A stretch of DNA of 64,000 nucleotides from a virus (taxonomy: Duplodnaviria; Caudoviricetes): positions 8,820 to 72,819 of the IMG/VR virus record IMGVR_UViG_3300032038_000060; one strand, 5' to 3'. Each line of letters begins with the position of its first letter. The stretch's first letter is position 1. Under the pieces are notes generated by a model. That model searched no databases. It saw nothing but the letters and a program-made list of their open reading frames with translations, and was not told the DNA's origin. A program made the position numbers and the translations under genes. This document shows, piece after piece, positions 4,094-39,210 of the stretch.

Positions 4094-4261
4094 ATAGGGT
4101 TTTGTTTCCATACGCACCTCGTGCTTTTTCATTAGTATTCATGGGACTTGGAGACATAAAACGTGAAAGGCAAAACGCAATTAGAAACATGCGTTTAACA
4201 TTTATTATGTTTAAGGGAGTCAAGTACATTTCTGTGTTTTTTTAGCGACTGATGAAGGAGC

Positions 4262-4436
4262 GGGGTTTTTCCTGACAAGGCATAAACCTGACGCAAGGCA
4301 GGTGTAGAAGTTCAAGGACTGACGACATAGGAGCTTGTTCATAGTGACGGCAGAACTTGAATTGCGACATCAGTCTGTAAAGACTTTATGTCGATGGCAG
4401 GGGTTTTTTAGGTTTTTGTTTATCTTCGCAAAGGGG
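4262..4436 (+). ncRNA. GGTTTTT-bracketed structured module A (diverged paralog of C and D)
   Basis: Same ends as C/D (GGGGTTTTTCCTGACAAGGCA ... GATGGCAGGGGTTTTTTAGGTTTTTGTT). Compensatory stems GGCATAAA/TTTATGTC, TTCAAG/CTTGAA and AGTCT-GTAA-AGACT. Confidence 0.65.
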
Positions 4437-4439
4437 CAC

Positions 4440-4635
4440 AAAAAAGCGCCACCCCAATGAAAAGCTACAACATGGGATGGCGCGAGGGATGACACGAAAG
4501 TCATCCGCTGCATGGCTTTCTTAGGACAATTAATATACAAAAGCAGCACCTCACGGTGGTTATGGAAAAATGAGTGTAAGCAAATATCGCAGGAAACAGT
4601 CCTGACTCCAGAAAGAGTTCACAGAACTGATTTCT
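4440..4635 (-). ncRNA. Candidate small RNA H with its own promoter and intrinsic terminator
   Basis: Canonical TTTG-N20-TACCTTTG at 4672-4641. Internal CACC-GTGA-GGTG and GGATGAC/GTCATCC hairpins. Terminator GCGCCATCCCA/TGGGGTGGCGC plus T6. No convincing ORF. Confidence 0.65.
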
Positions 4636-4640
4636 GAGTG

Positions 4641-4672
4641 CAAAGGTACTACTTTTTTATGTATCTCGCAAA
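4641..4672 (-). promoter_or_regulatory. Bacteroidota-type housekeeping promoter (leftward)
   Basis: TTTG-N20-TACCTTTG matches the established -33 TTTG / -7 TAnnTTTG consensus. Confidence 0.75.
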
Positions 4673-5218
4673 TAATCAGTGAGTTATCTTCGCCGCCGCA
4701 AAAAATATTTTTAAGGAGTTCCGCCGTTCGCAGCATCTTATATTTTTGTAAAATACCGCGTAATGTATTGATTTACAATTATTTATAATATATTTTTGCG
4801 GTTATATATATTTTTTCCTTAATATAAAGTATAGTAAAAATAAATAAAAGTTATCTATATATTATATGTAATAGACTGATAATCAATCTTTTCTTTTCTT
4901 TGTTAAATCCTTTTTATATAATGAGGAGAGCGGGGAGTTCTTACCTTTCAGAGAAAGATATGATTTGTAGGAATATTTTATGTTTATAAAAGGTTTTGTC
5001 TAAAAACGGGGGTTTTTCGGGAACAGGGTGTTTTTAGGCTTGTAACTTGTTGATTTTCATATATGTTACATGTGCCCAGACGCTTTAGGAACTGAACAAG
5101 GCTAAAAGGGTGCGAAATTTGTCGTAACTTATTGATTATCAGGTGCGCCCCTAAATCGTACCAAAAGTGCCCAAATAAACATTTTTTCGGGGAATTAAAG
5201 ATAACTCGCAGATTATTT
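4671..5218. promoter_or_regulatory. Cluster of six IHF-consensus-like sites
   Basis: YAA-N4-TTGAT-W exact at 4759-4776, 5042-5059 and 5124-5141. One or two mismatches at 4671-4688 (minus), 4868-4885 and 5201-5218. Confidence 0.55.
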
Positions 5219-5247
5219 GTGAGGAATTAAAATAATGCGTACCTTTG
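5216..5247 (+). promoter_or_regulatory. Bacteroidota-type housekeeping promoter (rightward)
   Basis: TTTG-N20-TACCTTTG ending 16 nt before the ATG at 5264. Confidence 0.75.
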
Positions 5248-5263
5248 CAGAAAATTAAAACCG

Positions 5264-5863
5264 ATGACGAACAATACCTATACTATGCCGGCGATATGCT
5301 GGCTGAAGATTACTGACTACATGAGGCCGTGGATGGAGCATGAGCTTGGCGGCGAGGTGAGGGCTGGCGAACAGCGTGTGATATGCGTACAGCATCTTCC
5401 TGGGGCGCGTGAAATACTCCGGATGGAAACGAAGGAGGAGATGATGGAGCAGCGTATCGTCGGCAATACTATGTCGGCCACCTTACGCAACTGTATTGAT
5501 GCAGGCATGGTACTGGATGCTTCGGCAGTAGAAAGGATGTATGGTATTACAAAAGAGAATCTGAAAGCGTATATGCCAATAGAGTGTCCGAAGATGTGCC
5601 TGACGAAGGACGGCGTACTGCGCCCGTGGACTCAGGATGTGTATTTCGGACGACAGCAGGCTATAGATTTGCAAAGGCTGCTGAGAGTGGAATATTGGAA
5701 GGCGGTAGAGAGATTCAACGAAAGTTACAAGCGCAAAAAGAACGGACGCTGGTATCCTGCGGTCGAGATGATTGAGGACTTCTGCCAGGAGACGAACACT
5801 CCGGACATGTATATCGAGGCCATCAGGAGGGAGTGGCAGAGGAGGTGCAAATCAAAGGCGTAG
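5264..5863 (+). CDS. Hypothetical protein (199 aa), sole gene under the rightward promoter
   Basis: Clean ORF with promoter and A-rich leader. No motif recognised. Confidence 0.75.
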   Translation: MTNNTYTMPAICWLKITDYMRPWMEHELGGEVRAGEQRVICVQHLPGAREILRMETKEEMMEQRIVGNTMSATLRNCIDAGMVLDASAVERMYGITKENLKAYMPIECPKMCLTKDGVLRPWTQDVYFGRQQAIDLQRLLRVEYWKAVERFNESYKRKKNGRWYPAVEMIEDFCQETNTPDMYIEAIRREWQRRCKSKA

Positions 5864-5881
5864 GCTTTGATTTGGGTTTCA

Positions 5882-5990
5882 GGTTTGACTTCGTCGATAC
5901 TCCCAAGTTCTCCCAGTTCTGTCTAAGCCTCTTCGCAGAAGCAACATCGGCTTGACATCACTGGTCGCTTTGGGCGCATTCAGGTTTCAA
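5882..5990 (+). repeat. 109-bp dispersed structured element, copy 1
   Basis: Identical to 12761-12869. Diverged copy at 13238-13346. Confidence 0.9.
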
Positions 5991-6008
5991 GTTTCAGGTT
6001 TCAAGCCG

Positions 6009-6668
6009 TCAGCCGCGCATACTTTTGCCTTCAAAGACTATTACCTTCGTAATAGCTCTGAGGCGGTCGAGGGTGCGAAGGCCATAGCGGCCTTCGATGG
6101 AAGGTATGGCAGTGTCTGTGGCGCGAGTGGTACGCAGGTTGGTGGTAAGGACAAGCAGACCGCCGCGACGCTCGCAGCTGTCAACGATTTCGTTGAAGGG
6201 AATGTGACGGTTGCCATAAATGTTAACCTCCACGGGCTCGGTACCGATGTCGTCGATAAACAGGAGTGCGCCACACTTATCCTGTATTGTATCAAACTTC
6301 TGTGTCATGTCGATGGCCGTATAGCAGTTAGGGACTTTTCTGGCATAGCGGTTTATTAGCACCGGGATGATGTACTGACAGATTACTGTCTTACCCAGAC
6401 CGCAACTTCCCTGGCATAGCAGTCCCCTACCCTTGTTATCCGTTAGCCATTCAACCACCTTGTCATAGGCTGGGAGCCACTGATACTTCTCACCGAGATA
6501 ATATTGCAGGCCAGCACGCAGCTTTGCCTCTGCATCAGCGATGTGTATATGATGCTGCAGTTCTACTCGCGGTGTGTAGTTATACAACGCTTTACCATCA
6601 TGTCTGCTGGTGAGGTCGGCCACTCCGGCCCCGAAGTCATTCACGAGATTTTGATTTTCCATTACCAT
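6009..6668 (-). CDS. DnaC/IstB-like P-loop ATPase (helicase-loader type)
   Basis: Walker A GSCGLGKT, Walker B LLFIDDIGTE, TTNL and DRL motifs. Overlaps the rep stop codon. Confidence 0.8.
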   Translation of the reverse strand: MVMENQNLVNDFGAGVADLTSRHDGKALYNYTPRVELQHHIHIADAEAKLRAGLQYYLGEKYQWLPAYDKVVEWLTDNKGRGLLCQGSCGLGKTVICQYIIPVLINRYARKVPNCYTAIDMTQKFDTIQDKCGALLFIDDIGTEPVEVNIYGNRHIPFNEIVDSCERRGGLLVLTTNLRTTRATDTAIPSIEGRYGLRTLDRLRAITKVIVFEGKSMRG

Positions 6669-7951
6669 TCCTTCTGTCCTTTAAAATAATCTTCTGTCGT
6701 ATTCTGTATTATAGTGTCATTCCCACTACCCTTCTTCAGCGGCTGTGATGACACCTCTTGTGCGGAGGTGAAGCATTTGTTTTCCTCCTCACGGATATAA
6801 TCGTCTATGGCCTTATGAGTCCATGCTGCGATGTTACGGACATCGCTGTGTCTGCCTGCCATGAACTCGTCGTGCCACGTCTGCAGCTGTATGACAAACC
6901 CGGGCATGATAACGGGTGTTACACGACGGAGCAGGGCACGTGCCTGGTTGATGTGGAGTCGGAAAAATTCTATCATAAGTTTCTGACATAACTCACGGTT
7001 TGGGGCGTAATCATTTTCTTCTTGAATGGTTCGTCCGGCTTCTGTGGGCAATATAGTAAAGGCCACTGAATCAGGTCGTTTATATGGTGGCAGAGGTGTT
7101 CCATGTAATAATCCCTGGTAGGTGAAGGTGAAGTCAGAACCTCCACTCTCTGCAAGTTTATCAAGTTCTTTCTGGGCCTGATTGAGTACCTTTTCGCAGA
7201 ACTGACTCCATGAACCATAACGATTCTCACGTTCAGGATCGTCGCTATCCTTTACAAAACCAAGACGTGTGCGTAAATCGCGCATAGGTATAACAAACTG
7301 TTCACTCTTTAGCCGACGCCATTCTTCAGAAAGGTATATGTATAGGGGGTATGAAAAACTGCTACGCAGACGACCTGCTGTATATCCTATAAACCGAGTA
7401 TAGTTACTGAAGAGATTTATATCAAGAATATTTTCTGCCGTAAGTCGTGGAATGATAACTGTAAAATCAGTACCTATAAATTTTCCGCCCTCGCGCTTGC
7501 CATGTATCTGCATCAAATTCTCTGTACGGAAGGACCCCGGATTATTTTTGTCTGGGATAAAGCATTGCACATGAGTAAGGGACGCAAGAACAATTCGCGC
7601 CTCTTCATAATGTGTATCGTCGGCTATATCGGACATGTGAAGTTTGAAAAGGATATCGCCCTCGTTATAAATATCCCTCTTCTCCCTGACGACCTCAAAT
7701 TCATCCGTAATAAAGTTTAGGTATAATTGTCCGGTCTTGTCAGCCTGTGGCATCTTGGCAATGCGCCACAAACCTTGCAGACGCTGGAGCACGGCTATCA
7801 GCACACGGTAGCCAGTAACCTTATTCATCATCGGTAAGTGGGCCAACTGACGGGGCTGTGTAATCAAGTCCTGAAGACTTAGAGTAACGGCTTTTTTCTT
7901 CTTTTTCTTTGCCTTGGGTTTAGTTCCTTCGGCAGATTTCTTTGTAACCAT
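6662..7951 (-). CDS. Plasmid-type replication initiator (Rep_3/RepA winged-helix family)
   Basis: LRSSFSYPLYIYLSEEW..IPMRDLRTRLG..YGSWSQFCEKVLNQAQKEL matches the Rep_3 pattern. Start moved to the ATG at 7951 behind the promoter at 8010-7979. Iterons are adjacent. Confidence 0.8.
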   Translation of the reverse strand: MVTKKSAEGTKPKAKKKKKKAVTLSLQDLITQPRQLAHLPMMNKVTGYRVLIAVLQRLQGLWRIAKMPQADKTGQLYLNFITDEFEVVREKRDIYNEGDILFKLHMSDIADDTHYEEARIVLASLTHVQCFIPDKNNPGSFRTENLMQIHGKREGGKFIGTDFTVIIPRLTAENILDINLFSNYTRFIGYTAGRLRSSFSYPLYIYLSEEWRRLKSEQFVIPMRDLRTRLGFVKDSDDPERENRYGSWSQFCEKVLNQAQKELDKLAESGGSDFTFTYQGLLHGTPLPPYKRPDSVAFTILPTEAGRTIQEENDYAPNRELCQKLMIEFFRLHINQARALLRRVTPVIMPGFVIQLQTWHDEFMAGRHSDVRNIAAWTHKAIDDYIREEENKCFTSAQEVSSQPLKKGSGNDTIIQNTTEDYFKGQKEW

Positions 7952-7978
7952 AAGAGTATTTTTTGTTGTAGCTGGGTG

Positions 7979-8010
7979 CAAAGGTAAGTATTTAAATCGT
8001 AACCTCCAAA
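7979..8010 (-). promoter_or_regulatory. rep promoter
   Basis: TTTG-N20-TACCTTTG. Confidence 0.7.
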
Positions 8011-8194
8011 TTTTTTGAAAGATTTTTTTATTTTTAATTGCATTTTTATTTGTTTTGATATTCAGAGATTTACATTTCATGGCCTTATATTTTGGGCAAG
8101 CACAACTATAAATTCGGAAAACCTTTCCTTATATTTAGGGCAGTTCTGGCTGCTATTTCGGTAAATAAAATCTTCATTTTCGAGAAACTTCTTT

Positions 8195-8359
8195 ACCTAC
8201 CAATTCGGAAAACTACCACCTACCAACTCGGGAAACTGATTGTATTTTACCTACCAATTCGGGAAACTGTCACCTACCAATTCGGGCAATTATAACCTAC
8301 CATCAGAGGAAAATGATACCTACCAACACGGAAAACCACCACCTACCAATTCGGGAAAC
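8195..8359 (+). repeat. Iteron array (replication origin)
   Basis: Seven ~19-bp ACCTACCAATTCGGGAAAC-type repeats starting at 8195, 8218, 8249, 8272, 8295, 8318 and 8341 (mostly 23-bp period). Further copy at 8510, inverted copies near 8643, 8701 and 8750, IHF-like site at 8368-8385. Confidence 0.85.
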
Positions 8360-8850
8360 TTTCTCTTGTAACTTATTGATAACCAGTACGGATATCTGCC
8401 CATATATAGTATTTCTATATAATATTCTATATGGATTCTATAGGAAAAACGATTCGGGGAAAATCATATTTTTATGGGGAAAGGATATCTCGGACATATT
8501 TATAATTTTACCTACCAATTCGGAAAACCACCTCTTCCGGCAAATTACCGGCAAATAAAAACGCATTGATATACAAGCACTTACAGAGCGCATGGATTTC
8601 CTGCGCAAATAAAACAATCCTGAAGGTTTTCCGGAAACATAGGTTTCCCGAATACGTAGGCATTACGTGTACGCGCGTAAACACAAGCGCCTTGTGCAGG
8701 TTTCCCAAATTGGTAGGCGCATGTGCTCGCGCTATACAACGCCCACGAGTTTTCCGAAATAGTAGGTAAAGTTCCCGTTTTGTCCGAAAACAAAAATCGC
8801 CAGCAATCTGGATGACTGCTGACGAGATTGTTACATTTTGTAATTGTTTG

Positions 8851-9231
8851 TCACTTAGTGTATGTCGTGGTGAGCTGCGATGCCATTTCGCGGAAGCGCT
8901 TATAATCTTCGTCGCTGATCGTACCAGAGGAACGTAGGCCGTCAATAATGAACATATAGATAGCACGGTGCTTTGGGGTGTCGCTGTCCGTACAGTAATG
9001 CTGTAGAGCATTAAACACCTCCTTTGGCATAATGGTTGTTGCCTTCTTGGTAGGGAATGGCATTACTACCCCGCCCTGCTTATTCTGCACACTTTGTATA
9101 ACAGTCTGGGGGTGCTGCACTTGTTGTGGTTCAATATCCAAACCTGCTATTTGTGTATTCTCTTCGTTGGCTATTGCCGTGTCAATACGGCTCTGTAAAG
9201 AACGGCGCTGTGGTTGATTTTTAGTACTCAT
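8851..9231 (-). CDS. Small ParA partner, probable ribbon-helix-helix centromere-binding protein
   Basis: Directly downstream of parA. Flexible N-terminus then KATTIMPKEVFNALQHYC..HRAIYMFIIDGL (RHH-like), as in type Ib partition cassettes. Confidence 0.55.
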   Translation of the reverse strand: MSTKNQPQRRSLQSRIDTAIANEENTQIAGLDIEPQQVQHPQTVIQSVQNKQGGVVMPFPTKKATTIMPKEVFNALQHYCTDSDTPKHRAIYMFIIDGLRSSGTISDEDYKRFREMASQLTTTYTK

Positions 9232-9301
9232 AGTTAATTCATGTTATGCAACCGCACAAATATGCAAATGTGCAAATGCGTGGTTGCTGGTTAATATTTT
9301 T

Positions 9302-10165
9302 TTATTTACCCCATTTCTTTAAATATTCATTAGCGAGTGCAATGAAATCATCGGTAGCGCGTCCACGTCCTTTGCGATAAGAGAATATGTCATGACACAT
9401 ACCAGGCTGATTGTCAAAGTCTCTGTCTTGCGAGTTAGGAACATCGTTGGTTCTGCTGATAACGGTCTTAAACACATCGCCCTCTGCGCGTAGAGCTTCT
9501 TCATAACTCTTAGCGCTGTTCAGACGGGAATCCTTCTTGGTTAACAGAACACCATGTATCTGAAGGTTCGGATTAGAGACCTTCTTTATCTTCATTATCT
9601 TACCGATTGTCTCTACATAGCCATCCACTGCCAGCGGTTCAAGTTCTACTGGTATTATTATTCCCGTAGCTGCACACACGACATTAACGGTTACACGCGA
9701 CATCGCAGGCTGTGTGTCGATGAAGACAAAATCGAAAGCACTCTCCCACTCTTTCAGACCTTCGCCTGTATGGTCGTCAATAGGCTCGGCGAAAAGAGAT
9801 TTCAGAACACGTACAGGGTCTGTCACTTTTGTGCTGTTGAGATAGACATCTGCATCTGCCATATTCTTTGAGGATGGAGTAAAATACAGTCCTATTTCAT
9901 TACGATATACCGGAATGTTTGCACCAAGACAGATAGCATTGAAAATGGTGGGCTCTCCTGGATTGTCTTTCGTCCCCTCGCGAGCCATATCCCATCCTGC
10001 CGATACAGAGAGATTACATTGTGGGTCAGTGTCTATAATAAGCACCTTGTAACCTTGCTTACTGATGGCTGCTGCCAGATTAAGTGTTGTTGTGGTCTTT
10101 CCTGCCCCACCCTTACTGTTGCTCACGGCGACAATGTGCCTGAGATGTGTTTCTTTCTTTTTCAT
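9302..10165 (-). CDS. parA: ParA partition ATPase
   Basis: Deviant Walker A KGGAGKTT, IDTDPQCNL, FVFIDTQP. Confidence 0.9.
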   Translation of the reverse strand: MKKKETHLRHIVAVSNSKGGAGKTTTTLNLAAAISKQGYKVLIIDTDPQCNLSVSAGWDMAREGTKDNPGEPTIFNAICLGANIPVYRNEIGLYFTPSSKNMADADVYLNSTKVTDPVRVLKSLFAEPIDDHTGEGLKEWESAFDFVFIDTQPAMSRVTVNVVCAATGIIIPVELEPLAVDGYVETIGKIMKIKKVSNPNLQIHGVLLTKKDSRLNSAKSYEEALRAEGDVFKTVISRTNDVPNSQDRDFDNQPGMCHDIFSYRKGRGRATDDFIALANEYLKKWGK

Positions 10166-10224
10166 TGTTGTAGCTTTTAAAAATGAGTAAAATATTTTTT
10201 TAATAATAATATTTCCTTATTATT

Positions 10225-10720
10225 ATGCAACCGCACAACTGCATAATACCATAGTTCCATAACTGTGCAACTATTCAATTTTACCTATTCTAAAATATGC
10301 ATCTGCACATTTATGCATGTATGTAACTATGCGATTATGTAGCCGCACAGCTGCACAATAACGAACCCACACATATTTGCGGTTGCATAACCACACAAGT
10401 ACACAACTGCGCATATATGTAGTAATGCGGTTGCAGAAATGCCTAACTGTGCAAATGTGCAAATATGTAATTACTTGTCTGTATAGTTGCACACATGTGC
10501 AGTTATGCGGTTCTGCAAATTTAATATTGCGTGGTCGCATACTTGTGCTTTTGTGCAGTTGTGCAACTCTGCGATTACATAAACTATATTCCGATGATGG
10601 GAAATTATATTCCTTCGTCGTCCCTAAGCTGGGTATATCCATAGTGTTGTCTTATTTGTTGTAGCTGGTGCAAAGGTATGCATAATTTTGCAACTGCACA
10701 ACTTTGCAACTGCAAACGTG
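10225..10720. repeat. Tract of degenerate TGCACA/TGTGCA repeats, candidate parS centromere
   Basis: Many TGCA(A/C)-core units, often with an ~8-bp period (e.g. TGCAACTGCACAACTTTGCAACTGCA), upstream of parA. Smaller patch at 9246-9285. Confidence 0.55.
10671..10678 (-). promoter_or_regulatory. -7 element of the probable par promoter
   Basis: TACCTTTG followed by CACCAGCTACAACA, nearly the same 5' leader as rep. Confidence 0.55.
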
Positions 10721-10963
10721 TATAATTTTAAGTTTTTTTAATGATTCAGGTCTGCCCACTGGCTTTGCCGAGCGCGTTTTGATTTTACTTTGCCCACTGG
10801 CTGCGCCGAGCGCTATTCGCACCTCAGGAATAAATAACGGCAACCTTGCAGGTTTTACATCAATTCTTTAATCATCAACTGATGCGAGCATCGTTGAATG
10901 CTTCAAGATTTATTGTATTGTTGTTTCACAACATTGTCGTTATTTATTCCGTTCGGTTTGTCT

Positions 10964-27167: not shown

Positions 27168-28418
27168 TCATGCCACTAAAGGTTTACATTTTAACATATC
27201 GGCATCGAACTCTATAATCTGTGAGATGTCGTTCGTATCAAAAATCTCGCGGCGAAGGTTATAACTGGCTGTGTGAGAGAGTATTCCAAGATAGCTGCTG
27301 ATAGTGAGGTTTGCGGATTTGACATTGCGAAGATCTATTTCCTGCATTCTAACCTTTATACGCTCCAGCGTCTTGTTACTCACATAATCACGGTACGGTT
27401 TCACAAAAGTACCCAGAAACTCTACTCCCTTATGCACCTCCTGTATATGTAGCTTGCCCATAAGTAATTCCAGCCCAAGTTCATCATATAAAAACTCTCG
27501 CACCTTTGGCACTTGGGCCAAAAGCCATTCCTTGTCAGGGTCAATCATATTGCTGTCATCAACATATCTGCCATAATGTCTGCACAAAAGGATACGCTTT
27601 ACGTATTGGTCGAACACATTCAGATAGACATTACTGAAGAGTTGTGAGGTAAGATTGCCGATTGGCAGAGCCAATCCTTTCTCGACAAAGCGCATGCACT
27701 TAGCATGGTCAATATCATCCCAGTCAGAGGGGTCGCCTACTATCTGGCAATTTTCCATCGGGTCAAGCATCACAATCTGCTCGGTGAGCCACAAGATAAA
27801 ATCGAAGTCACGTATGTCTGCCCATGTGGTTTCAGAAGTCAGTAGCACACCAGAAGGTATTGACACCTCATCGGACACACCTACTTTGTGTGTTGCCATT
27901 TTCTTTAACGAGGCCGTCGCTATCTTCAGTAACTTCTCGCGATTTATGTGCATAAAATAACCGCGAATATCAAGGCTCATAGCGTATGCTTCCTCCTGCC
28001 AATTAAGCGACGCCTCACGCACATGTTTACGAATACGTTCTATTCCATAGCCTGTTCCACGTCCCTCTATGCAAGAATAGGAGTCGGCAATAAAGGTGCG
28101 TTCAAACAGTTGGTGCGTATAGTTGAAATACAGGTGATGCACGATGCGGTCACGAAAAATTGCAGCGAACACTTCGCGTTTCTTAGGATATGTAACAACA
28201 AAGCACTTTGATGGAAGTGCTTTGTATCTGCGCATTAGCAGGTCATCACAAAGAGAATTTAGATTCTCTGCCAGATTGCGCTCGAACTTCTGCACGTACG
28301 ACATCTTGTGCTTATGCCTTGCGGCATCATAAAATGCTACATATAGGTCGTAAAGAAGTTGCTGGCGGGTAAGATGATACGTATGGCTAAGAGAGGAATT
28401 GACTGACTCGTATGTCAT
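27168..28418 (-). CDS. DGR reverse transcriptase
   Basis: KREVFAAIFRDRIVHH, LDIRGYF, LPIGNLTSQ, YGRYVDD. ATG at 28418 just after the TR. Confidence 0.95.
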   Translation of the reverse strand: MTYESVNSSLSHTYHLTRQQLLYDLYVAFYDAARHKHKMSYVQKFERNLAENLNSLCDDLLMRRYKALPSKCFVVTYPKKREVFAAIFRDRIVHHLYFNYTHQLFERTFIADSYSCIEGRGTGYGIERIRKHVREASLNWQEEAYAMSLDIRGYFMHINREKLLKIATASLKKMATHKVGVSDEVSIPSGVLLTSETTWADIRDFDFILWLTEQIVMLDPMENCQIVGDPSDWDDIDHAKCMRFVEKGLALPIGNLTSQLFSNVYLNVFDQYVKRILLCRHYGRYVDDSNMIDPDKEWLLAQVPKVREFLYDELGLELLMGKLHIQEVHKGVEFLGTFVKPYRDYVSNKTLERIKVRMQEIDLRNVKSANLTISSYLGILSHTASYNLRREIFDTNDISQIIEFDADMLKCKPLVA

Positions 28419-28430
28419 CGTAGATAAGGG

Positions 28431-28610
28431 CTGGACTGGACGCACAGGGAAACCGTTGTACCGGTTGTTGTTGTTCTGTGGATTGACACCACCACTGTTG
28501 AAGTTCAGGTTGCGGGCATTACGACTGCTGTTGAACGTAGAAGACCAGTAGTTCCCGTTTGAACCGCGATTATTGCGAGACGTACCATTACCGTTGCCAG
28601 AGCAGGCAAT
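28431..28610 (-). repeat. DGR template repeat (TR)
   Basis: 180 bp aligning without gaps to 29508-29687; 17 mismatches, all at TR adenines of the coding strand; 17 Asn (AAY) codons. Confidence 0.95.
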
Positions 28611-28819
28611 CGGGAAAATATACCTCAAAACAAAACCTGCATACGTCCTGAGTAATGCGTCGGTTGTTACCTATATGGCAGCAAGGAAGAACACTGGGAG
28701 CCACCTTGCGTCTTTACTTTTTCCCACATCCTACGGATGGAGGACGAACAACCTATGAACTTGTCTAATTCCTGACATCGGACTTTCCTTGTCTTTTTAT
28801 CACTTTACGTATCTTATAG

Positions 28820-36890: not shown

Positions 36891-37214
36891 ATGGGCTGCA
36901 TAAATATCACCGTAAATCCCGTTGCTCCTACCGTGCTCGGTATTACTCCACAAGAGGGTGCCAGCATGGATATGAGCCCCGTGGCCGGTGCGTCGCTCGA
37001 AGCTACTCCTGCAGAACCTGCCTTGATTGGTGTAACTCCTGCAGCGCCGTCTGCACTACAGGTTATACCGCAAAATGGCTGCACGTTAACTATCGGCGAG
37101 ATATGCAGTGTCAGTGGTGGTACTATTGTCGTACTTGCCGCAGCAGATGGGCCTCTGCGCCTAAGGGATGGAGGATATCTTCTGTTGGACCCAGAGGCAA
37201 ACCCACCTGAATAG
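36891..37214 (+). CDS. Small Pro/Ala-rich virion protein
   Basis: MGCINITV..CSVSGG..LRLRDGGYLLL. Confidence 0.65.
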   Translation: MGCINITVNPVAPTVLGITPQEGASMDMSPVAGASLEATPAEPALIGVTPAAPSALQVIPQNGCTLTIGEICSVSGGTIVVLAAADGPLRLRDGGYLLLDPEANPPE

Positions 37215-37239
37215 AAACAACACAAGAACAATAAGTAAT

Positions 37240-39210
37240 ATGAATATCGGACTATTATCAATTTTGCACAACAAAATATGGGACTTCCGCCCAGATATGG
37301 CACAGACCTATGCCAATGCGCTGAAGAATGCCATTGAGTTGCAACTTGACAATGACATCGAGAAGCAGCATGGCTACTTCCTTTCAAAGAAGGGTTATAA
37401 GGACAAGGATGGCAAGATTGTTGGTGCCAACTTCGAGGATAAGTTGTATGTCGGCAATATCTATCGTGTAGAGGATCACCTTTACTGGGACGGCGAGGAA
37501 CTGGCCGACGATGACCAGATTATTGATGTCGTTGTAGTTGACGGCCCTATCACCCGTGACGGTGGTGGCTGTTCTTATGGCTCAAAGGACTGGCGTGACC
37601 AGGTGTTATATGCTAACACTATTCCGCAGGTGGTGGGCCATCTGTTCATCATTAACACTCCAGGCGGAGAGGCTGCAGCCCGTAACGACTATGAGATGAT
37701 GATTAACGACTGCCGTGAGAAAGGTAAGCCCACTGTTGCCTTCGTGGATGGCATGTGTGCATCATCAGGCGTTAACCTTGCTTGTCGCTGTGACCGTGTG
37801 ATTGTGATGAACCCTAAGGATGAGTTTGGCTGTATCGGCACGATGGCTGCCTTTTGGGCAGTAGCTCACGATACTGTTGACCAGGACGGCTACCGCTATG
37901 TCGAACTTGTCGGCAAGGATTGTCCTGAGAAGAACGCCTGGTGGCGTGAAGCTGCCAAAGGTGAGTATGAGAAACTGCAGGCAGACCTCGACAAGGACAC
38001 AGTGGAGTTCCATCAGACTGTCCGTGAGAATCGCCCATTGGTTACTGACGATATGCTTTCAGGGAAGGTGTTCGAGGCACAGGAGGTCATCCCTGCACTC
38101 GTAGATGAGATAGGTAGCATGGAGCGTGCCATTGAATGTATCTTCGCACTTGCCAACGAGGAGATGCAGGCTGCACGCTTTATGACTGCACCAGAGCCTA
38201 ACGGAGAAGGCGGTGAACCGGAGCCCGGAAACGAACCGGAGGAACTGGCTAAGCTCAATGCACAGCAGAAGGCTGCCATCAATAAGGAAAAAGGAAATCT
38301 TACAGTTGTTGACGACGGCCATGTCTCCGCCGAGAGACAAGGAATGTTTGGTCCACACATGGAAGAAATAGCAACCCCTAAAAACGATAAAGAAATGACA
38401 GACGAAGAGAAGAAGGCCCAGGAGGCTGCAGCAGCCCAGGCCGCAGAAAAGAAAGAAGAAGCAGCACAGGCAGAAACCCAAGGGGCTGAAGCTCCCGCTG
38501 CTGATGGAACCGATGAAGGTACACAGGAAGGTGCCGGAAATGGTTCAGGCGAAGGTGCAGGCACTGAAGGTGCAGGCACTGAAGGTACTGGCGAAGGTAC
38601 TGGAGAAGGTGCTGGTACAGGAGGAACAGGCGAAGGCACTGGTTCTGAAGGTACTGGAGAAGGTGCTGGTTCCGAGGGTACTGGTTCCGAGGGTACTGGC
38701 GAAGGAACAGGTACAGAAGGGACTGGCGAAGGTGCCGGAGAGGGCGCAGGCTCTGACGGTGCAACTATCGAGAACGCTCAGGCCGAAATCGACAAGATCA
38801 GCGAGACCCTGCACAACGCAGAGCAGATGATTGCCGACAAGGACAAAGAGATTGCTGAACTGAAGGCTGCTGCCGAAGAGAAGGAGACAGACTTTAAGGC
38901 AAAGGAAGTAGCTATCGAAACACTTACAAAGGAGCGTGACGATGCTAACTCTCAACTCTCAACTCTTAACTCTCAACTCTCAGAGAAGGACGCTACTATC
39001 GAGACACTCACCAAGCAGGTCGCTGATCTTCAGGCAGAAGTCAAGGAGTTGGCGGGCAAGCCAGGCTCTATGACTAACGAGCAGGCAGGCATCCCAGCCG
39101 GCAACGGCATAGGCGACGCTCCGAAGGTACACCAGAAGCGCATCACCCGCGAGAACATGACCTACGAGCACTGTCGCGAGGTAGCCAAGGAACGCCAGGC
39201 ACAGAAGTAA
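37240..39210 (+). CDS. S49 prohead protease fused to a scaffold-like C-terminus
   Basis: INTPGGE, VAFVDGMCASSG, GCIGTM; Gly/Glu/Thr repeat linker, then a coiled coil. Confidence 0.85.
   Translation: MNIGLLSILHNKIWDFRPDMAQTYANALKNAIELQLDNDIEKQHGYFLSKKGYKDKDGKIVGANFEDKLYVGNIYRVEDHLYWDGEELADDDQIIDVVVVDGPITRDGGGCSYGSKDWRDQVLYANTIPQVVGHLFIINTPGGEAAARNDYEMMINDCREKGKPTVAFVDGMCASSGVNLACRCDRVIVMNPKDEFGCIGTMAAFWAVAHDTVDQDGYRYVELVGKDCPEKNAWWREAAKGEYEKLQADLDKDTVEFHQTVRENRPLVTDDMLSGKVFEAQEVIPALVDEIGSMERAIECIFALANEEMQAARFMTAPEPNGEGGEPEPGNEPEELAKLNAQQKAAINKEKGNLTVVDDGHVSAERQGMFGPHMEEIATPKNDKEMTDEEKKAQEAAAAQAAEKKEEAAQAETQGAEAPAADGTDEGTQEGAGNGSGEGAGTEGAGTEGTGEGTGEGAGTGGTGEGTGSEGTGEGAGSEGTGSEGTGEGTGTEGTGEGAGEGAGSDGATIENAQAEIDKISETLHNAEQMIADKDKEIAELKAAAEEKETDFKAKEVAIETLTKERDDANSQLSTLNSQLSEKDATIETLTKQVADLQAEVKELAGKPGSMTNEQAGIPAGNGIGDAPKVHQKRITRENMTYEHCREVAKERQAQK

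Follow-up and report, generated by a model that had tools for sequence, protein, structure and literature searches.

The C4 RNA of the phage-plasmids P1 and P7 is an antisense RNA encoded by the immI operon, in the order c4-icd-ant, according to a later summary of the original work (Citron & Schuster 1990, via PMC8198154). It is the closest functional analogue of the predicted small RNA (sRNA) considered here, which lies in a 64,000-nt stretch of DNA (hereafter the window; positions 8,820 to 72,819 of the IMG/VR virus record IMGVR_UViG_3300032038_000060) belonging to a probable phage-plasmid of rumen Bacteroidales. Like C4, it is a phage-plasmid small RNA, and its proposed action in trans relies on short exposed stretches directed at the start regions of its targets. 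In P1 and P7, matched changes in the RNA and its targets define immunity types. C4, however, is cut from the transcript of an operon under its control and targets an antirepressor module, whereas the RNA described here is a separate unit located 3.3-6 kb from its targets, exposes its pairing sequence in a terminator loop, and is directed at the replication gene rep, the partition gene parA and accessory genes. Membership of the C4 family was rejected, since no covariance-model match was obtained and the RNA has its own promoter and targets in other operons.

Other phage-plasmids encode immunity RNAs of a different design. In the satellite phage-plasmid P4, the CI RNA pairs with repeated boxes on replication or early transcripts, as does a related small RNA in N15, and transcription of the operon that encodes each RNA is thereby ended prematurely. 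The boxes found here instead belong to separate operons, where they occupy 5′ ends and start codons, and are not followed by a terminator. Among plasmids, antisense control of replication is textbook knowledge, but it is nearly always cis-encoded and concerns a single gene. Counter-transcribed RNAs (ctRNAs) such as CopA/CopT of R1, RNA I/RNA II of ColE1, the Inc RNA of ColIb-P9 and RNA I of MRB plasmids resemble the present RNA in its proposed dose-dependent negative control and incompatibility (PMC3035462). Recognition by ctRNAs goes through an exposed loop, as it would here, and in some of the rep leaders in relatives of the window (the type-2 leaders described below) the target is predicted to lie in a hairpin loop, as in a kissing layout. 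Yet ctRNAs are encoded opposite a single target to which they are fully complementary, whereas this RNA shares only 8-13 nt with several unlinked targets that include partition genes. A cis-encoded ctRNA was likewise rejected: the RNA shares the strand of rep, from which it lies 3.3 kb downstream, and its complementarity spans 10-13 nt.

A regulatory role for a terminator loop has been reported recently in E. coli, where the terminator loops of SdsR, RseX and ArrS, sRNAs that act on fepA, are the functional determinant, depend on Hfq and RNase E, and are reported to act “likely without base-pairing” (PMC11979758). The evidence presented here differs in favouring direct Watson-Crick pairing. 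To our knowledge, Bacteroidetes have no Hfq and no Shine-Dalgarno-led initiation, and very few sRNA mechanisms are known in the phylum. Literature searches returned no description of this RNA nor of riboregulation in Bacteroidales phage-plasmids. Antisense control of plasmids is already known, and the new aspect would be the combination of trans encoding, several targets and a seed carried in a terminator loop.

The initial annotation had proposed a minus-strand RNA whose 16-nt terminator loop is antisense to the parA and rep leaders, bounded by a promoter at 4672-4641 and an intrinsic terminator at 4483-4440; both signals are present as placed. Read directly in the sequence, the promoter (4641-4672, minus strand) comprises a −33 element TTTG (4672-4669), a 20-nt spacer and a −7 box TACCTTTG (4648-4641). 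We take TTTG-N20-TACCTTTG to be the Bacteroidetes −33/−7 promoter consensus, as distinct from the −35/−10 pattern of sigma-70. From a start position deduced from this promoter, transcription would yield a predicted non-coding RNA of about 200 nt (4436-4636, minus strand). The terminator (4440-4483, minus strand), about 195 nt downstream of the promoter, has an 11-bp G+C-rich stem with a folding energy of about −22 kcal/mol, formed by a 5′ arm at 4483-4473 and a 3′ arm at 4456-4446, and is followed by a tract of six U residues (4445-4440). Its loop, UGUUGUAGCUUUUCAU (4457-4472, minus strand), is 16 nt long, as first described, and contains the seed, the invariant core of which, GUUGUAGC, is the complement of plus-strand positions 4464-4471. 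Opening the loop costs a computed 0.4-1.2 kcal/mol. A 209-nt stretch of the unit folds better than all of 200 shuffled sequences (z = −3.9). A promoter and an intrinsic terminator of its own are as expected for a trans-encoded base-pairing sRNA, and in all 18 lineages discussed below both the promoter box and the hairpin are found.

The body of the RNA is otherwise little conserved. Homologues can be aligned only at the loop core and at one small hairpin with a GNRA tetraloop, and elsewhere differ by large insertions and deletions, which makes a conserved open reading frame (ORF) in the unit unlikely. In the window this hairpin reads CCACC-GUGA-GGUG (4547-4559, minus strand); it is kept in 12 of the 18 lineages in the family form CCRCC-GYGA-GGYGG, with covariation from CACC/GGUG to CGCC/GGCG. 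No Rfam family reached its gathering score anywhere in the window, and permissive thresholds applied to 4200-4800 gave only SNORD58 and RsmY at chance level. A consensus terminator scan did not call the hairpin because it accepts loops of 3-8 nt only, and therefore neither supports nor contradicts it. In one relative (L013), a tRNA-Met gene (9641-9713) is located inside the sRNA unit, between the promoter and the seed-bearing terminator, which might mean that tRNA-processing enzymes release the RNA; ARAGORN did not call a second tRNA-like stretch.

The 10-nt sequence AGCTACAACA, which the initial annotation had recognised by eye as rare, occurs in four exact copies in the window against 0.18 expected. 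None of 100 shuffled sequences reached four copies, and the whole 72.8-kb record holds no further copy. One copy (4463-4472, plus strand) is antisense, within the RNA loop, while the other three (7964-7973, 10166-10175 and 10657-10666, all minus strand) are sense, within mRNAs. All three complementarities first noted there were confirmed. Target 1, AGCUACAACA (7964-7973, minus strand), is located at about +1 of the rep mRNA and 13 nt before the rep ATG at 7951. It begins 5-6 nt past the rep −7 box (7986-7979), is predicted to be fully unpaired, and forms 10 bp with the loop. Target 2, AAAAGCUACAACA (10166-10178, minus strand), abuts the parA AUG and forms 13 bp with the loop; the closest strong promoter is some 500 nt away. 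Target 3, again AGCUACAACA (10657-10666, minus strand), is found at about +1 of the par-operon transcript, 5 nt past the par −7 box (10678-10671), and forms 10 bp; its homologue in relatives is found 22-58 nt before parA. About eight strong host-type promoters are present in the record, and three of them carry the box.

A fourth, weaker candidate target, AGCTACAAG (G000:C1:657-665, minus strand), follows a TACCTTTG box and could form 8 bp with the loop. The gene behind it (G000:C1:644-297, minus strand) encodes 116 amino acids (aa) and is located about 8.1 kb before the start of the window. A homologue that is 66% identical is found in L045, where the 116-aa protein gene is preceded by a perfect box and its product has a helix-hairpin-helix-like C-terminus. 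In a crude duplex scan that ranked 465 candidate start regions, parA came second, rep sixth and the 5′ end of the par transcript seventh. A genome-wide scan of duplex energy alone does not single out the targets, and the comparative evidence is therefore relied upon here.

Searches with Rep and with the neighbouring gene at 5264 recovered 17 further lineages, all from metagenome or virus collections, making 18 in total. Compensatory changes between loop and leaders in such related elements had been set beforehand as the test of trans pairing over 3.3-6 kb, and they were found: conservation of the loop together with its targets, and matched changes in both, across the 17 relatives support the proposal. 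The layout is the same in every lineage, with a Bacteroidetes-type promoter (its TAnnTTTG box precedes the loop by 92-470 nt in 18 of 18) followed by an RNA of variable length. Terminator stems are rich in G+C, measure 10-14 bp and vary in sequence from one lineage to the next, and the loops, 13-22 nt in length, hold either GUUGUAGC or GUUGUAAC (GUUGUARC). In an RNAalifold consensus of 14 homologues, seven of ten stem pairs are changed on both sides and the core is the sole invariant block. Every lineage has the exact complement of its loop core in the leader of rep and upstream of parA.

The seed itself occurs in two matched forms. In L008, L018 and L045 the loop carries A (GUUGUAAC), and all seven leader boxes read GUUACAAC, with U; in the remaining lineages the loop has G and the boxes have C. 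The three U-type lineages do not cluster in the Rep tree or in the gene-5264 tree, both of which are poorly resolved, and the L045 hairpin is almost identical to that of the G-type L022 save for the seed base. The number of independent seed switches is put at one to three, and not at a firm three, because L008 and L018 may be sisters in the Rep tree; more than one switch is suggested. Covariation extends to the base immediately 3′ of the core: it is U in the loop and A in the target in the window, L018 and L022, C and G in L006, L007, L013 and L024, and A and U at the rep leader of L008. This position is mismatched in L019 and at two sites in L008. Cognate loop-target pairs span 9-13 contiguous bp, and shuffling the assignment of loops to loci gave p = 0.00055, a value that ignores shared ancestry. 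The loop thus shows what is expected of a trans-acting sRNA, namely an accessible seed that is conserved and covaries with targets encoded elsewhere.

The box persists on very different replication and partition genes. The loci found through gene 5264 include a second Rep type, only 22-24% identical to the Rep of the window, and the ParA proteins of the compared loci are 35-74% identical to that of the window; the box is kept in both cases. Near-identical sRNA/gene-5264 modules accompany one Rep type at some loci and the other Rep type elsewhere (L019/L057, L052/L006/L007 and L049/L046-L048), and module exchange is extensive within the phage-plasmid family. That the box is found in all leaders despite this exchange argues for selection on the box itself and not on linked sequence.

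The targets are presented in more than one way. Short leaders carry the box at their free 5′ end. In four long type-2 leaders (L048, L050, L052 and L056) it is located within the apical loop of a hairpin, with a probability of being unpaired of 0.97-0.99, on stems that differ by lineage (GAACG/CGUUC, GGUA/UACC and CACCAAUG/CGUUGGUG). This corresponds to a kissing-loop layout, as opposed to the linear targets of the window. In L040 the box is intercistronic, 3 nt before the ATG and right after the preceding stop codon, with no nearby promoter. The distance from box to start codon is generally 1-36 nt, and 35-45 nt in long leaders; it is 1 nt at the parA ATG of the window and 3-10 nt in L018, L019, L022 and before accessory genes. 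The spacing between the −7 box and the target box ranges from 4 to 21 nt, with the distance to the ATG staying short throughout. Boxes are always in the sense orientation relative to their gene, regardless of genome strand. Across whole records, nearly all sense copies are found in leaders, and the single antisense copy per record is the loop. The sequences show how the unit is built, that it is conserved, that loop and targets covary and, by predicted folding, that both pairing partners are exposed.

Boxes in relatives also precede genes for a 46-aa helix-turn-helix (HTH)-like protein, for proteins of 82, 96 and 120 aa, for a coiled-coil protein, a lipoprotein and, in L008 and L056, a conserved protein of 170-182 aa. 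The rep or parA leaders of L006/L007, L013, L024 and L046-L052 hold, beside a perfect box near the 5′ end, a second and degenerate one, (A)AAGCTACAC, 2-5 nt before the ATG. Departures from the perfect match follow the rules of wobble pairing. By computed energies, pairing of an A-loop with a C-type target is weaker by 6-9 kcal/mol, whereas a G-loop still pairs with a U-type target by forming G-U pairs. No C-type box occurs where the loop has A, and some U-type or G-U sites occur in genomes whose loop has G.

The reading that we favour, with a probability of roughly 70%, is that the locus gives rise to an antisense RNA, encoded in trans, which keeps down the translation of rep, parA and a small number of accessory genes and so serves as a copy-number and incompatibility determinant. 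A stand-alone gene (about 4636-4436, minus strand) would be transcribed from its host-type promoter into a non-coding RNA of about 200 nt, whose large terminator loop would expose the seed GUUGUAGC(U). The loop would then pair in trans, over 10-13 contiguous bp, with the AGCUACAAC(A) boxes at the rep and par 5′ ends and at the start of parA. In Bacteroidetes, ribosomes load onto mRNAs only where the leader is free of structure. Given this requirement and the closeness of the boxes to the starts, a block of translation initiation by pairing is the most likely mode of action: ribosome loading would be occluded on leaders that lack a Shine-Dalgarno sequence, and the mRNA would perhaps also be destabilised. 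If the dose of the RNA tracks the copy number of the element, it would exert negative feedback on replication, beside the iterons, and on the partition genes, and could act as an incompatibility or immunity determinant towards related elements. We infer that the RNA is produced and that it represses, and its biological role in the same way.

Several points weigh against this reading. The RNA unit and its termination are predictions from sequence, and the 16-nt loop is far beyond the 3-8 nt typical of intrinsic terminators. Repression as the direction of the effect is a suggestion drawn from the position of the sites. Pairing is limited to 9 bp in L019 and L013, with the flanking position mismatched in L019, and the degenerate box adjacent to the ATG (GCUACAC) pairs over 6-9 bp only. 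By duplex energy alone, several G+C-rich intragenic sites equal the rep and par-5′ boxes.

The alternative that survives best is one of emphasis: the RNA may be mainly a life-cycle switch or immunity factor, shutting off plasmid-prophage functions when lytic growth begins or silencing superinfecting relatives, and not a steady-state copy-number control. It overlaps with copy-number control and does not exclude it, and as the principal role we regard it as a minority possibility, though a serious one. Some support comes from the neighbouring gene at 5264-5863 (plus strand; 199 aa; region 5183-5863), which has a −7 box TACCTTTG at 5240-5247 and adjoins the sRNA in all relatives. The sRNA promoter is divergent from this gene, as had been pointed out when the locus was first described, and the two promoters are inverted copies of each other: 4640-4705 and 5183-5248 form an inverted repeat of 66 nt that is 71% complementary, and both promoters contain AGATAACTC-N-C-N-GATTATTTG-YGAG ... 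TACCTTTGCA. Such inverted copies of one promoter architecture suggest a single regulator for the sRNA and gene 5264. The copies flank an A+T-rich region with TGATTATCAATAAGTTAC-type boxes, the regulon in relatives includes the small HTH-like protein and other accessory genes, and the seed variants look like immunity specificities. Against this, no repressor or antirepressor was identified, and gene 5264 has neither an assignable family nor a confident fold. It matched no Pfam or PHROG family, gave no significant match in a profile search of solved structures, and fell into viral hypothetical clusters only in a protein atlas; its AlphaFold model, built from a four-sequence alignment, has a mean pLDDT of 49.8, a quality insufficient for fold searching. 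Promoters of one host-type class also serve the sRNA, rep and par, so that there is no sign of lytic-phase timing. The case for a plasmid-to-lytic switch, as the initial annotation had it, is circumstantial.

The TGATTATCAATAAGTTAC-type boxes are located at 4760-4777, 4876-4887, 5042-5059 and 5124-5142, in the A+T-rich region between the sRNA and gene 5264. One more box of this type is found in the iteron region at about 8372-8390, and L008 and L026 contain boxes that resemble them. A function as operators or as origin elements is conceivable.

It is also conceivable, if rather unlikely, that the RNA activates or protects its targets, by shielding 5′ ends from decay or by remodelling leaders, and so promotes maintenance instead of silencing it. 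Several boxes are located at the extreme 5′ end of the mRNA, where pairing could stop 5′-end-dependent nucleases, and the boxes of long leaders, 35-45 nt from the ATG, are beyond the window of simple ribosome occlusion. Many other boxes, however, directly overlap the start region, as at parA and in L018, L019, L022 and the accessory genes, and the short leaders are predicted to be unstructured, which leaves no inhibitory structure for the RNA to relieve. Every characterised antisense RNA of such a layout that we know of, from plasmids or phage-plasmids, is a repressor, which also counts against activation.

A more distant alternative dispenses with RNA pairing altogether. The motif could be a double-stranded DNA operator for a protein of the element or of the host that represses the rep, par and accessory promoters, the loop copy being either another site or incidental. 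Two observations favour this at the expense of an antisense RNA: many boxes begin 4-7 nt past the −7 box, a place at which protein binding would obstruct RNA polymerase, and covariation within a genome is equally expected from a shared double-stranded motif. Two direct copies are also present in several leaders. The motif differs, however, from both the iteron and the centromere repeat. Some boxes are intercistronic or adjacent to the ATG, far from promoters, and it is the distance to the ATG that stays short while the spacing to the −7 box varies. The constant sense orientation of the boxes, the placement of the lone antisense copy, always unpaired between covarying G+C-rich arms and followed by a U tract, the hairpin loops with covarying stems that hold the targets of long leaders, and the obedience of deviations to G-U wobble rules are likewise features at the RNA level. 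On the strength of five such features, we consider the operator improbable. Chance complementarity is effectively refuted, for although 10-nt matches arise randomly and the duplex-energy scan gives comparable scores elsewhere, the excess of exact copies and the coordinated changes in 18 lineages speak against it.

The replication and partition modules that carry the targets are those of a plasmid. The rep gene (6662-7951, minus strand) encodes a replication initiator of 429 aa that adjoins iterons and has a weak match to phrog_4402 (E = 2e-4); Rep is 77-82% identical in nine relatives. Its promoter (7979-8010, minus strand) has TTTG at 8010-8007, a 20-nt spacer and TACCTTTG at 7986-7979. A start at 8080, which gives the longest ORF, was rejected in favour of the ATG at 7951, used in all relatives, because position 8080 is upstream of this promoter. 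The iteron array (8195-8767), upstream of rep, contains ten copies of TTCCCGAATTGGTAGGT, seven on the minus strand and three on the plus strand, against 0.16 expected by chance. Direct repeats beside an initiator gene are the arrangement expected of an iteron-controlled theta replicon, the weak family match of Rep notwithstanding. A gene for a DnaC-like helicase loader (6009-6668, minus strand; phrog_3277, E = 1.9e-23) is found downstream of rep. In L022 (2604-4859) the Rep ORF is 751 aa long, compared with about 400-430 aa elsewhere, which may mean that Rep is fused there to the product of the loader gene that follows, or that sequencing introduced a frameshift.

The partition ATPase gene parA (9302-10165, minus strand) matches Pfam AAA_31 (E = 1.2e-34), CbiA and the ParA-like phrog_164 (E = 6.8e-48). 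Between it and the par promoter, whose −7 box TACCTTTG was read in the sequence at 10671-10678 (minus strand), is a centromere-like array (10222-10727) of TGCA(C/A)AACTGCACA-type (TGCAnAACTGCACA-type) repeats. A ParA/MinD-family ATPase with a centromere-like array nearby is characteristic of type I partition, and L013 has the same par layout, with repeats ahead of parA. A 123-aa ORF at 10271-10642 (minus strand) within the parA 5′ leader is most likely this centromere and not a gene: its translation is odd and Cys-rich, it is full of TGCAnAACTGCACA repeats, and it had no Pfam or PHROG family match. From its position and a reading of its translation, a small ORF downstream of parA (8851-9231, minus strand), which the initial annotation called a ribbon-helix-helix (RHH) protein, is possibly a centromere-binding adaptor; no Pfam or PHROG family matched it.

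The record is an entry of a virus collection and is rated 61% complete, and the records of relatives reach 122-145 kb; four are rated 100% complete, and direct terminal repeats are present in one. Among the large ORFs, a search for virion genes with PHROG and Pfam returned only a prohead protease (37168-39210, plus strand; phrog_53, E = 7.6e-37) and a reverse transcriptase (27168-28628, minus strand; Pfam RVT_1), and most other large ORFs were unmatched. DNA runs containing the window come from bovine and sheep gut metagenomes, that is, from the ruminant gut; the single search of sequencing runs listed no RNA run with this sequence. No close DNA relative was found among deposited phage genomes, and no relative of Rep in isolate or metagenome-assembled genomes. 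Judged by its gene content, the element is probably a phage-plasmid of rumen Bacteroidales, with a clear rep-iteron-parA module from which maintenance as a plasmid is predicted.

For this family, a trans-encoded RNA appears to join replication, partition and accessory genes in one regulon through only 8-13 nt of complementarity. Natural seed variants, together with the mosaic exchange of Rep and Par modules, provide ready-made compensatory pairs, and both offer a simple explanation of mutual inclusion or exclusion among related rumen phage-plasmids. If the regulation is confirmed, seed and box would make a compact, portable post-transcriptional switch for Bacteroidales genetics. A wider and more tentative proposal, which we hold to be doubtful as yet, is that the seed is the master incompatibility or immunity code of a mosaic family of rumen Bacteroidales phage-plasmids, in which a change of seed creates a specificity that is cross-reactive in one direction. 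If so, one RNA would govern replication, partition and accessory genes together, whichever of the interchangeable Rep and Par modules an element carried, and a G-to-A change in the seed, matched by C-to-U in every leader, would found a new specificity. RNAs with a G-loop would silence U-type elements by wobble pairing and RNAs with an A-loop would not silence C-type elements, giving a dominance hierarchy in co-infection.

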